A DNA stretch of 64,000 nt, taken from assembly GCA_016181405.1 (NCBI GenBank), contig JACOZJ010000002.1:10608-74607 (forward strand), read 5' to 3'. Below, piece after piece: positions 4,982 through 26,752 of the stretch. Within the stretch, counting starts at the first letter, position 1. Every line of letters starts with the position of its first letter. The position numbers were made by a program, and so were the translations under genes. Origin of the DNA: Candidatus Wildermuthbacteria bacterium (lineage in GTDB: Bacteria; Patescibacteriota; Minisyncoccia; Minisyncoccales; UBA10102). The notes below the pieces were generated by a model. That model worked only from the letters and a program-made list of their open reading frames with translations. It did not search any database and was not told the DNA's origin.

Positions 4982-5393
4982 GTCGGAGGAAGTTAGGCAA
5001 TCGCTCCCCGCCTCTTCGGTGGGGGGAGGAAAGTCCGAACACTCTCCGCCCGCAAGGGCGGATAAACTACTCCGGGTAACACCCGGCCGCCGCAAGGCGA
5101 GCGGTGCGAACAGAGACGAGCCCGCCAACATCTGATGAAGTTGTGGCGGGGTGAAACGGCTAAATCCGTGTAGGGTGCAAGAGTAAACCCTTCGGCAAGT
5201 CTCAGGGTAAACCCCTACAGAAAATTTATGTTTTCTGGGGCCTGTCCCGAGCTTGTCGAGGGATGAAAAGTGACTCGCTATTGTCCTGAGAGAAATCGAA
5301 GGGCTTGATCCTTCCTGGTAACAGGTTGGACAGATAGATGATTGCCTCCGCCGATGAGGCGGAACAGAATTCGGCTTATAGGCTTCCTCCGAC
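4982..5393 (+). ncRNA. rnpB: RNase P RNA, bacterial type A
   Basis: P1 is an 11-bp helix GTCGGAGGAAG(4982-4992)/CTTCCTCCGAC(5383-5393). The universal P4 strands are GGAGGAAAGTCCGAACAC and ACAGAATTCGGCTTATAGG. GGGTAAACCCC and AGATAGATGATTGCC blocks are also present. The overlapping ORFs 4916-5395(-) and 4947-5135(+) are artefacts. Confidence 0.93.
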
Positions 5394-5401
5394 ACAAAAA
5401 A

Positions 5402-23341: not shown

Positions 23342-23419
23342 GCAGATGTAACTTCCTGGTACTCGCGGAAGTCACAGGGTTCATAACCCCCAGGTGCGGT
23401 TCGATTCCGCGCATCTGCA
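23342..23419 (+). tRNA. Atypical tRNA, best read as CAU anticodon (Met or Ile2-type); CCA not encoded
   Basis: Acceptor GCAGATG/CATCTGC, T-arm TGCGG-TTCGATT-CCGCG and anticodon loop TTCATAA (U33, CAT, A37). Unusual points are a 6-bp D-stem ACTTCC/GGAAGT with a 10-nt loop, and an anticodon stem CAGGG/CCCCC with only 3 GC pairs plus A.C and C.C mismatches. Confidence 0.6.
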
Positions 23420-25163: not shown

Positions 25164-25179
25164 ATACGCAGGTTTATTC

Positions 25180-25386
25180 TAAACCCGCCCCAGCTAAGCT
25201 GGGGCGGGGAAAATTCCTTATGAAACCGGGGCGGTAACCCCATGTTGTGAAACTTAATGAGTTCAGCCCCCGGTTTCAACTCCTATGATAGCAGTATCTT
25301 TATAAAAAGCAAAAGGCCTCACCTAGGGGAGGTCTTCTGCCGTTTCACGTCGGGGACGGACAACTTGCGTTGTACCGAACTCATTG
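25180..25386 (-). ncRNA. Candidate structured RNA of unknown family (an sRNA or the 5' leader of the helicase gene)
   Basis: It starts about 7 nt after a consensus promoter. Helices: AATGAGTTC/GAACTCATT (25377-85 with 25256-64), GTCCCC/GGGGGC (25352-57 with 25266-71), a GNRA-capped ACAAC-GCAA-GTTGT (25360-73), GAAACCGGGG/CCCCGGTTTC (25222-31 with 25268-77) and CCCGCCCCAGC-tta-GCTGGGGCGGG (25184-25208). No ORF is present. Confidence 0.5.
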
Positions 25387-25390
25387 CGCC

Positions 25391-25418
25391 ATTATACACT
25401 TTTAAAATAAATTGTCAA
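25391..25418 (-). promoter_or_regulatory. Consensus sigma70 promoter
   Basis: The minus strand reads TTGACA (25418-25413), a 16-nt spacer, then TATAAT (25396-25391). Confidence 0.7.
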
Positions 25419-25495
25419 TCCTGTAGTAGATTTTGGCCAGATTTCATCTATTTTTGTTTCGCATATGGCGAAACGGTCAAAAATTCACTACGGGG

Positions 25496-26752
25496 TCAAT
25501 CCCCTCTTTTCACAAAAAATATTTTGGCGAACACGCTTGCCTCCTGTACAGAAGGCACACTGTGCACAACGCCAATTTGATCTCTCCCCCGTACGCTATT
25601 TGCGGGTATCGAAACGGTAAGCGCTCTTGGTTCTGCCAACAGCAGGTTTTCTTTTGCGACTACCCGCACCGACAAGGTTCTAATCTTTCCTTCTCCAATC
25701 TGTACCGCCAAGCCCGGAAAGCTAAGGCGATAGCGATCATCCTCTACTGCCGTAAACGAACTTTCGGCAACTTCGATGGTTGCCACGGCCTGCGAACCAT
25801 CTCGAATTTCTACTGCAGAAAGAAAAAGCCAGGGCCTGTCTGTAAATTCAACATCAAGGCGTTCAATGACAATCGACGAATCTATCGCAGAAGCGCGAAA
25901 ACTCAATATATTCACGCCGCCTGCTCCCGATTGGGCCGTAGCCCCAGAAGGACTTCCTTGAATGGCAAGTGTGATAGCTCCCTCCTGCGCAAGATCCTCT
26001 AGAAAAGGGCTTCCCGCTTCGGGGATTGCGGGAGCTGCGGGCGGACACACCGCAGAAGCTTTTGCGCTTACTTCTTGAGAGAAGCTCCCCCATCCTCCCG
26101 CGTTTCCTGCCCGTACTTTGTAGGTATACGCCTTCCCTGCGCCAAGCCCTCGATCAACAAAAGAGAAGACACTGCCTCCGCCCACGCGCGTACTTCCGCG
26201 AAAAACCTCGTAGAACAGGGCTCCGGGGGAAGCACTCCATGTAACCTGCACATTCCCTCCGCAAATACCTTCCTGTGCCCATACAAATGGCGAGGCAGGA
26301 GGGCATTGGGAAGAAATGGTAATCGTTTTTACGGGAGAAACAGATCCGAGCCCTCCTGCATTTTTTGCCCGAACCGTATATGCATAGGTTGCCCCCGGCA
26401 CCAACCCAGTGTCGAGAAATTCCAAATTCTTGCCGCTGTACACCTCAAAGCCGTTCCGGTAGAGCACGTATCCGCTCGCGCCCGACACTCGATCCCACGT
26501 AACTTCAGCTTGCCCGCAATTGGAAATCGTAGGAGCCGCTGGAACAGATGGCTGCGCAAACCGTACAGCCAAAAGTTTTTGCTGCAGCTCAATAATAAGC
26601 TGAAGGAGCTGAACAATAATCGCCTGAAGTTCATTGATATGCTCTTGCTCAGTTACATCTTCGCTCTGCGCGAAAACAGGAGTCAAAACCGCCCCGAAAG
26701 CGAAAACAGAAATTAACAGCACAATCCCCAAGGCAAAAATAGTACCTTTCAT
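25496..26752 (-). CDS. Secreted/surface protein with a signal peptide, a coiled segment, two fibronectin type III domains and a C-terminal beta-rich domain
   Basis: Signal peptide MKGTIFALGIVLLISVFAFGAVLTPVFAQ. FN3-like repeats are AEVTWDRVSGASGYVLYRNG...YAYTVRAKNAGG and VQVTWSASPGALFYEVFRGS...YTYKVRAGNAGG. Confidence 0.75.
   Translation of the reverse strand: MKGTIFALGIVLLISVFAFGAVLTPVFAQSEDVTEQEHINELQAIIVQLLQLIIELQQKLLAVRFAQPSVPAAPTISNCGQAEVTWDRVSGASGYVLYRNGFEVYSGKNLEFLDTGLVPGATYAYTVRAKNAGGLGSVSPVKTITISSQCPPASPFVWAQEGICGGNVQVTWSASPGALFYEVFRGSTRVGGGSVFSFVDRGLGAGKAYTYKVRAGNAGGWGSFSQEVSAKASAVCPPAAPAIPEAGSPFLEDLAQEGAITLAIQGSPSGATAQSGAGGVNILSFRASAIDSSIVIERLDVEFTDRPWLFLSAVEIRDGSQAVATIEVAESSFTAVEDDRYRLSFPGLAVQIGEGKIRTLSVRVVAKENLLLAEPRALTVSIPANSVRGRDQIGVVHSVPSVQEASVFAKIFFVKRGD

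Follow-up and report, generated by a model that had tools for sequence, protein, structure and literature searches.

Several described RNAs bear comparison with the locus studied here. RNAs of the DapZ and MicL type are small RNAs (sRNAs) of the 3'-untranslated-region type, transcribed from a promoter of their own that lies where the upstream coding sequence ends. RsaE/RoxS and LhrC are C-rich-motif sRNAs of Firmicutes. Among housekeeping RNAs, 6S RNA is a rod with a large central bubble, closed by a stem between its 5' and 3' ends, and signal recognition particle (SRP) RNA carries a domain IV motif, a GNRA loop with AGCA/GGAA-type internal loops. The locus in question is the gap between genes for an FN3-repeat protein and a PIF1-like helicase in Candidatus Wildermuthbacteria (contig JACOZJ010000002.1), within a 64,000-nucleotide (nt) stretch of DNA, here called the window. 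A preliminary description of this gap had proposed a highly structured RNA of about 200 nt upstream of the helicase. We consider it probable that the gap holds an independent, conserved small non-coding RNA (ncRNA) locus of a Wildermuthbacteria-like clade of Patescibacteria, or candidate phyla radiation (CPR), that is not in Rfam 15 and to which the helicase is incidental. Our confidence is high that the RNA is independent, structured, and selected, and low for any specific target or mechanism.

The locus resembles the DapZ and MicL type in that its promoter overlaps or abuts the upstream stop codon. The FN3 stop codon TGA sits within the −35 box TTGACA in four related loci (L003, L013, L014, and L016; related loci are designated by L numbers). 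The upstream mRNA must share the first terminator, and the product would be short, with a terminator hairpin. Unlike that type, it has no sequence or model similarity to these RNAs, and a second conserved module past the terminator pairs with the first. We know of no Hfq context in these bacteria. With RsaE/RoxS and LhrC the locus shares the succession of a hairpin, a single-stranded C-run, and a terminator hairpin whose apex carries a C-run, and the single-stranded C-run here pairs with a G-run (helix beta, below). The differences are that the Rfam models of those sRNAs give no match, G-rich ribosome-binding sites are rare in this genome, and the only supported partner is the neighboring 3' module.

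Covariation supports pairing between two modules

Our best guess is a two-module, two-state regulatory RNA. A sigma-70 promoter would start transcription at about 25385 (coordinates are those of the window, and features lie on the minus strand unless stated otherwise). The 5' module would consist of a single-stranded 5' end (S1), the hairpin P2, a C-run (S3), the segment GUGAAAC (S4), and the hairpin P4/T1 with its U-tract. A variable AU-rich spacer would follow, probably with a second, weaker promoter. The 3' module would be an 11-base-pair (bp) hairpin, P5, with a conserved 36-nt loop, after which a terminator, T2, would end the locus. Such a locus would act as a two-state riboregulator. A short form ending at T1 would expose free, single-stranded conserved segments, and the 3' module, produced either by read-through or by transcription from the internal promoter, would sequester those 5' segments.

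Two models were scored against a structure-aware alignment that comprises six distinct sequences and covers five lineages. Model B comprises P2, beta, alpha, P4, and P5. In this model 97.7% of cells are paired, and nine pairs show double changes (six in P2, two in alpha, and one in beta). Shuffled controls gave 3.3 ± 1.3 double-change pairs, a comparison that is not a probability given the few, related sequences, and controls with slid partners gave at most four. RNAalifold independently returns P2, P4, and P5.

P2 (25358–25376) is the hairpin GG-U-ACAAC-GCAA-GUUGU-CC, which contains ACAAC-GCAA-GTTGT at 25373–25360. Six of its seven pairs carry changes on both sides, and all cells are paired. 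The loop varies in sequence and length across the window and its relatives (GCAA, AUUA, GUUA, UUA, AUUCG, UUU, and CUU) and is GCAA, AUUA, or GUUA in close relatives. The GNRA-capped hairpin of the preliminary description is thus present as a covarying stem, but its GNRA loop is not conserved.

The C-run S3, GUCCCCG (25351–25357), pairs either with UGGGG at 25242–25238 (beta) or with CGGGGGC at 25272–25266 (P3). Helix beta, CCCCG (25355–25351) with UGGGG (25242–25238), is 100% paired, with one double change from C-G to A-U in L022 and a change from G-U to A-U in L016 and L020. S4, GUGAAAC (25342–25348), is the 5' strand of pseudoknot helix alpha and has GUUUCAC at 25253–25247 as its partner. 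In L022 alpha reads GUAAGAC:GUCUUAC, with two compensatory double changes, and all alpha cells are paired. Both partner strands lie in P5 (25221–25278), whose stem pairs UGAAACCGGGG (25278–25268) with CCCCGGUUUCA (25231–25221) over 11 bp, 100% paired; as DNA this is the inverted repeat TGAAACCGGGG/CCCCGGTTTCA at the same positions. The conserved 36-nt loop contains S1' (25264–25256), S4' (25253–25247), and the G-run (25242–25238). Changes in P5 are solely of the G-U type, from A-U to G-U in L003 and L022 and from C-G to U-G in L016 and L020. Read on the other strand these would be A·C mismatches, so they fit the minus strand only.

The alignment thus shows that the 5' module can pair with the P5 loop through GUGAAAC:GUUUCAC and CCCC:GGGG in a predicted long-range pseudoknot. 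The pairing would be a pseudoknot if both modules are on one transcript and a kissing interaction if they are on two RNAs. The preliminary description had proposed a structured ncRNA with competing helices and a pseudoknot, and to that extent it is supported. It had missed this GUGAAAC:GUUUCAC and CCCC(G):(U)GGGG pairing, which is supported evolutionarily together with the 11-bp helix P5.

Competing pairings are conserved in sequence

All helices of the preliminary description are present at their coordinates on the minus strand. Among them is the 9-bp helix P1, whose 5' strand is S1, the 5'-terminal AAUGAGUUC (25377–25385), a perfect complement of 25264–25256. As DNA the pair is AATGAGTTC (25385–25377) and GAACTCATT (25264–25256), 100% complementary. 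S1 is invariant except for A1 to C in L016 and L020, and P1 as a whole changes only at its ends and is without covariation. P3 joins GTCCCCG (25357–25351) to CGGGGGC (25272–25266) and has unpaired cells in L015, L020, and L022. Model A consists of P1 and P3, both taken from the preliminary description, and a local hairpin, UGGGGU:GCCCCG, added in this analysis; like P3, the local hairpin has broken cells in L015, L020, and L022.

P3 and the local hairpin share G- and C-runs with beta and P5 and are therefore incompatible with them, and P1 crosses alpha and beta. At the level of sequence, then, a second, mutually exclusive set of pairings is shown to be available, namely AAUGAGUUC:GAACUCAUU, GUCCCCG:CGGGGGC, and UGGGGU:GCCCCG. 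By their sequence conservation the competing helices appear real; covariation backs only one of the two states. Co-folding could not separate the two states, because it gives no score to the pseudoknot. The 9-bp closing helix and the GTCCCC/GGGGGC helix of the preliminary description are accordingly present but are not the core fold, as the former never covaries and the latter is broken in three lineages.

Promoter, extent, and conservation

The RNA promoter (25391–25418) has a −35 box TTGACA (25418–25413), a 16-nt spacer, and a −10 box TATAAT (25396–25391), matching the consensus at 12 of 12 positions as had been described. TTGACAATTT...TA(T/C)AAT is kept in all five lineages, and the spacer and the 5 nt past the −10 box vary. 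Each lineage scanned (the window, L016, L020, and L022) scores 12/12 or 11/12. Transcription is predicted to start at A25385 or A25384, and it is exactly there, at (A/C)AUGAGUUC, that conservation sets in again.

The conserved core spans 25385–25221, about 165 nt, and ends at CCCCGGUUUCA. With the terminator the RNA would reach about 205 nt, so the earlier figure of about 200 nt is replaced by these two extents. The whole RNA gene would occupy 25181–25385, composed of the core, a short linker, and T2. A covariance model matches the window at 25216–25385 with 204 bits and finds one copy per relative. The 227 nt from the −10 box to the helicase ATG have a minimum free energy of −95.3 kcal/mol, compared with −66.4 ± 4.6 for 200 dinucleotide shuffles (z = −6.3), in agreement with the earlier claim of a highly structured RNA. 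The opposite strand of this stretch gives z = −4.5.

Four near-identical genotypes carry the RNA among close relatives: the window, L003 (identical to L011 and L012), L010, and L013/L014. Between the window and L003, 13–19% of four-fold degenerate sites differ (32/247, 42/220, and 36/188). In the RNA, by comparison, 3 of about 155 nt differ in the 3' part and 6 of 117 nt in the 5' part, which here takes in the promoter. Differences among close relatives are confined to loops, linkers, or G-U-compatible positions. Against the distant lineages the core, with the spacer excluded, is 81–87% identical, compared with 62–66% for the DNA of the adjacent FN3 gene.

No second copy of the RNA was found in the 64-kb window or in the other loci, and neither blastn against phages and plasmids nor scans of viral contigs gave a match to it; a repeat or mobile element was rejected on these grounds. 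A metagenome scan with a purine/pyrimidine pattern returned near-identical copies only.

Terminators and a possible internal promoter

The P4/T1 hairpin, GGCAGAAGACCUCCCCUAGGUGAGGCC, is followed by the U-tract UUUUGCUUUUU (25304–25341 together), ends in UUUUGCUUU, and hardly varies across the lineages. The hairpin and U-tract together resemble an internal intrinsic terminator. Its equivalent was flagged as terminator-like by the scan in L016 and L020. The window copy, with a bulge and an A·C mismatch, was not flagged.

A possible internal promoter lies at 25285–25312 in the variable AU-rich spacer, with TTGCTT (25312–25307), 16 nt, and TATCAT (25290–25285). TATNAT occurs 5–6 nt before the conserved UGAAAC in every lineage, within a spacer that otherwise varies in sequence and length, and TTGCTT is retained 15–17 nt upstream of it. 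TTGCTT has been duplicated separately in L003 and L020, and in both cases the hairpin with its U-tract and a −35/−10 spacing of 16–17 nt are preserved. An internal promoter is therefore probably present at 25312–25285, judging from these retained motifs. The locus may thus give rise to a short 5' RNA (about 80 nt), a 3' RNA (about 95 nt), a read-through RNA (about 205 nt), or some combination of these.

T2 (25181–25208) is an 11-bp GC hairpin, CCCGCCCCAGC-UUA-GCUGGGGCGGG, followed by UUU; the hairpin (25208–25184) is the perfect inverted repeat CCCGCCCCAGC/GCTGGGGCGGG. It lies about 20 nt before the helicase ATG (25163), and its U-tail is weak. At the same position, beyond a short linker that varies, the stems of L016 and L022 are unrelated and bear UUUUUCGUUU tails, and in L020 there is no terminator after the core, so that the RNA runs into murB. 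Because other lineages have different terminators here, the hairpin before the helicase is best read as the terminator of the RNA, with extra pairing options that are specific to its lineage. The perfect hairpin of the preliminary description is thus present, as a plain terminator replaced by unrelated hairpins elsewhere. The two possible partners it had given GGGGCGG are likewise peculiar to one lineage and fall away as a general feature. TTTTGCTTTT was considered as a recurrent terminator tail and rejected, since its other window copies lie in coding sequence.

Gene order around the RNA

The flanking genes, all on the minus strand, encode a DegT-like aminotransferase, a CapD-like epimerase, the FN3-repeat protein, then after the gap the PIF1/HTH_40 helicase, MurB, and SecA. 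PIF1-like helicases are widespread in Patescibacteria. A genome scan anchored on the helicase found only one relative, a Candidatus Wildermuthbacteria metagenome-assembled genome with a helicase 95% identical. As the nearest reference, it places the window in a CPR/Patescibacteria bacterium. Four helicase homologs at 62–67% identity, in six anchored loci, have upstream gaps of 30–120 nt and different neighbors, and a covariance-model search of these six loci found the RNA element absent.

Distant relatives were gathered with the FN3 protein as anchor. The promoter and RNA directly follow FN3 in L014 (FN3 87% identical), L015 (65%), L016–18 (60%), and L022–23 (59%). In L019–21 (55%) a gene for an M49 peptidase lies between FN3 and the RNA, and the RNA adjoins MurB. 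The helicase is the next gene in the window clade only. Outside it the next gene is Fic, which has its own 12/12 promoter, an opposite-strand tRNA-Met followed by MurB, or MurB directly, and murB is downstream of the RNA in most lineages. Because the next gene varies in this way, the ancestral order is most simply read as DegT-CapD-FN3-RNA-(tRNA)-MurB-SecA, with the helicase inserted later. The helicase would then be an incidental, lineage-specific neighbor, and the RNA would not be its leader. The link to the helicase made in the preliminary description is not upheld, given that homologs at or below 67% identity lack the element and that the RNA precedes Fic or MurB in relatives.

No FN3 terminator precedes the RNA promoter; in L020 FN3 does have one, and P4/T1 is kept there nonetheless. 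The helicase of the window lineage lacks a clear full promoter of its own, with only TAGAAT at 25181–25176. This box matches a −10 box at five of six positions, follows directly after T2, stands 12 nt before the helicase ATG, and is kept in the helicase-bearing relatives. It may be a helicase promoter with a very short leader.

Coding capacity and known RNA families

The earlier statement that the region downstream of the promoter has no open reading frame (ORF) needs amending. A 39-amino-acid ORF with a TTG start runs from 25279 to 25160, its end overlapping the start of the helicase as ATGA. Its frame is shifted by 1-nt indels between the window, L010/L014, L016, and L022, with nucleotides and pairing kept. 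The AGGAG upstream of TTG abuts it without spacing and becomes AGAG in L010, L013, and L014. As the frame is not kept, the ORF is not taken as coding, and an upstream ORF or leader peptide was rejected.

Shine-Dalgarno-like motifs (GGAG, GAGG, or AGGA in the 20 nt before the first ATG) occur in 4 of 52 long ORFs of the window. Several genes, such as FN3 and SecA, have a −10-like box 12–20 nt before the ATG. The two observations together suggest that mRNAs of this organism have very short leaders or none.

Rfam 15, searched at gathering scores over the whole window, found no family at the RNA locus, which agrees with the earlier failure to match known signatures. Gathering-level matches elsewhere in the window were RNase P class A at 4985–5394 on the plus strand (117 bits, threshold 100) and one tRNA at 832–902 on the minus strand. 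Relaxing the search to E ≤ 10 for the window, L022, and L016 copies yielded nothing beyond scattered hairpin or terminator matches below threshold, none above 22.5 bits, and no family of matching architecture. ARAGORN found no transfer-messenger RNA or tRNA-like identity for the RNA. Hammerhead, glmS, SRP, and 6S were weighed by eye and are without Rfam support. A retron msr-msd was rejected because no reverse transcriptase occurs among the neighbors in the window or at related loci. In full-text searches of the literature we found no regulatory RNA of this kind described for CPR/Patescibacteria; only work on tRNA introns turned up for the phylum.

Weighing the explanations

The features expected of a stand-alone sRNA gene are found in the sequence, namely a promoter of its own, no coding capacity, a predicted intrinsic terminator, and conservation independent of the flanking genes. 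Whether this would be one RNA or two bears on a reading that is a variant of our best explanation rather than its opposite. Two tandem sRNAs, RNA1 from 25385 to about 25304 ending at T1 and RNA2 from the internal promoter at about 25278 to T2 at 25181, may pair in trans as an sRNA and a co-encoded partner or sponge. The terminator-like T1, the TATNAT retained just ahead of the point where P5 conservation begins, in a spacer that varies elsewhere, the two independent TTGCTT duplications, and the return of conservation at the predicted second start site all speak for it. The internal −35 box matches at only three of six positions, below the scan criteria, and a single read-through pseudoknotted RNA explains the covariation equally well, so we hold two sRNAs to be possible but doubtful. 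A cis-regulatory leader, a riboswitch or attenuator in which competing helices set termination against read-through into the downstream gene (the helicase here, murB ancestrally), was the interpretation offered in the preliminary description. The locus shares with such leaders the conserved exclusive pairings that reuse G- and C-runs, and the pseudoknot. This reading also gains from murB being downstream in most lineages, from the window helicase starting 20 nt past T2 with its weak U-tail, and from L019–21. There the RNA enters the true murB start without a terminator and UGGGGU:GCCCCG with UCAUUUU is flagged as terminator-like, to which P5 would be the anti-terminator. This competing expression platform with a U-rich tail is seen in L019–21 only, not in L016 or L022, whose final terminators share no alternative pairing with the conserved core. 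There is no constant downstream gene family (helicase, Fic, opposite-strand tRNA-Met, and MurB all adjoin), no match to an aptamer family, and no upstream segment able to sequester the 5' half of T1, and helicase homologs elsewhere do without the element. A leader is in our judgment unlikely, and the attenuator interpretation is set aside on account of the varying neighbor and of a final hairpin outside the core.

A divergent 6S or SRP RNA missed by the Rfam models in CPR would account for the consensus promoter, the length of about 165–205 nt, the single copy per genome fragment, and conservation above the neighboring genes. The RNase P RNA of the window, at only 117 bits, indicates that CPR RNAs are divergent. 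Yet the E ≤ 10 search of three lineages gave no 6S or SRP match, and the fold of two hairpins, P5, and a loop pseudoknot is by eye not the 6S rod, having neither an end-to-end closing stem nor a central bubble, and by eye lacks the SRP domain IV motif. We rate this very unlikely. Still less probable is that the gap encodes no functional RNA and is a strong promoter with terminators for the flanking genes, its palindromes acting as DNA, perhaps bound by proteins. Points in favor are that T1 or T2 has to terminate the FN3 transcript as well, that the T2 DNA is perfectly palindromic, and that the plus strand also folds better than shuffles. The compensatory changes in P2, alpha, and beta argue against a DNA-level role, as do the G-U-only changes tolerated solely on the minus-strand RNA and the retention of P4/T1 in L020 despite the terminator of FN3. 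So do about 135 nt of non-palindromic sequence that are conserved at 81–87%, against 62–66% identity in the neighboring coding DNA. Least credible is a small protein or leader peptide from the 39-amino-acid ORF, coupled to the helicase by the ATGA overlap. The ORF exists with AGGAG just upstream, and four lineages have an open frame in this region, which a gene caller joined to MurB. The 1-nt indels shift its frame while sequence and pairing are kept, and AGGAG is neither conserved nor spaced from TTG in a genome where such sites are rare.

Several observations weigh against the independent two-state RNA that we favor. The alternative state (P1/P3/H4) is without covariation, and the switch could be a chance product of G- and C-runs. 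Among the six sequences from five lineages, L022 alone supplies the three double changes in alpha and beta. The RNA start site, the efficiency of T1, and the internal promoter are all inferred from sequence, and the internal −35 box fails the promoter-scan criterion. Scans of the 64-kb window for complementarity to trans targets gave nothing outstanding, and the scarcity of Shine-Dalgarno sites weakens the idea that the C-runs target ribosome-binding sites. Since the helicase has no clear promoter of its own, read-through from the RNA locus may still contribute to its expression. One candidate trans target, murB, was rejected, because S1 resembles the start region of murB in the window and not in relatives, and because murB was unranked in a duplex-energy scan of 66 gene starts.

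On the mechanism we venture a tentative proposal that we think rather unlikely as it stands. The locus could be a self-contained RNA-RNA switch, in which an sRNA and its dedicated partner hairpin lie in tandem on the same strand, with capture through alpha and beta or release to P1 and P3, or else its compact core could belong to a new, CPR-specific class of ligand-binding or catalytic pseudoknotted RNAs. If true, the self-contained switch would be of a kind not yet described. In the tiny genomes of CPR, a non-coding element of about 165 nt kept above the level of the neighboring protein gene likely does something important, and this one offers a clear architecture of promoter, two modules, pseudoknot, and terminators. 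The apparent helicase leader would be an accident of gene insertion.

Insertions and annotation near the locus

The window lineage alone carries an 81-nt insertion (25422–25502, minus strand) between the FN3 stop codon and the −35 box, flanked by the 8-nt direct repeat GGATTGAC, and it is absent from L003, L013, and L014. The repeat is a second copy of the −35 region and FN3 stop codon, and within the insertion is a 7-bp hairpin, GTTTCGC-CATAT-GCGAAAC. L003 (as L011 and L012) has an insertion of 141 nt at 2719–2859, with one repeat copy counted, just past the P4/T1 U-tract, with a 13-nt direct repeat, GCCTTTTGCTTTT, on either side. The insertion opens with the U-tract in inverted orientation, which gives a perfect hairpin of 17 bp; no second copy of this insertion was found among the sequences compared. 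Both indels lie outside the conserved modules, and both are flanked by direct repeats.

Between the helicase and MurB, a tRNA-Met-like sequence with anticodon CAU lies at 23342–23419 on the plus strand of the window. It scores 24.9 bits, under the Rfam tRNA gathering score of 29, and is missed by ARAGORN. Its D-arm insert, at 14 nt, is unusually long, and its anticodon stem contains mismatches. The corresponding position in L022 is occupied by a normal tRNA-Met (cat). In L019 (5941–6999), L020 (5944–6999), and L021 (5359–6417), the MurB gene call runs about 27 codons too far upstream, across the 3' module of the RNA. Compared with other MurB proteins in an alignment, the true start falls at the ATG of MKEFEILKQK, 16 nt after the RNA core. 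The extension is an annotation artifact caused by the RNA, and this comparison corrects the annotation of assemblies in which gene callers fused the RNA to MurB.

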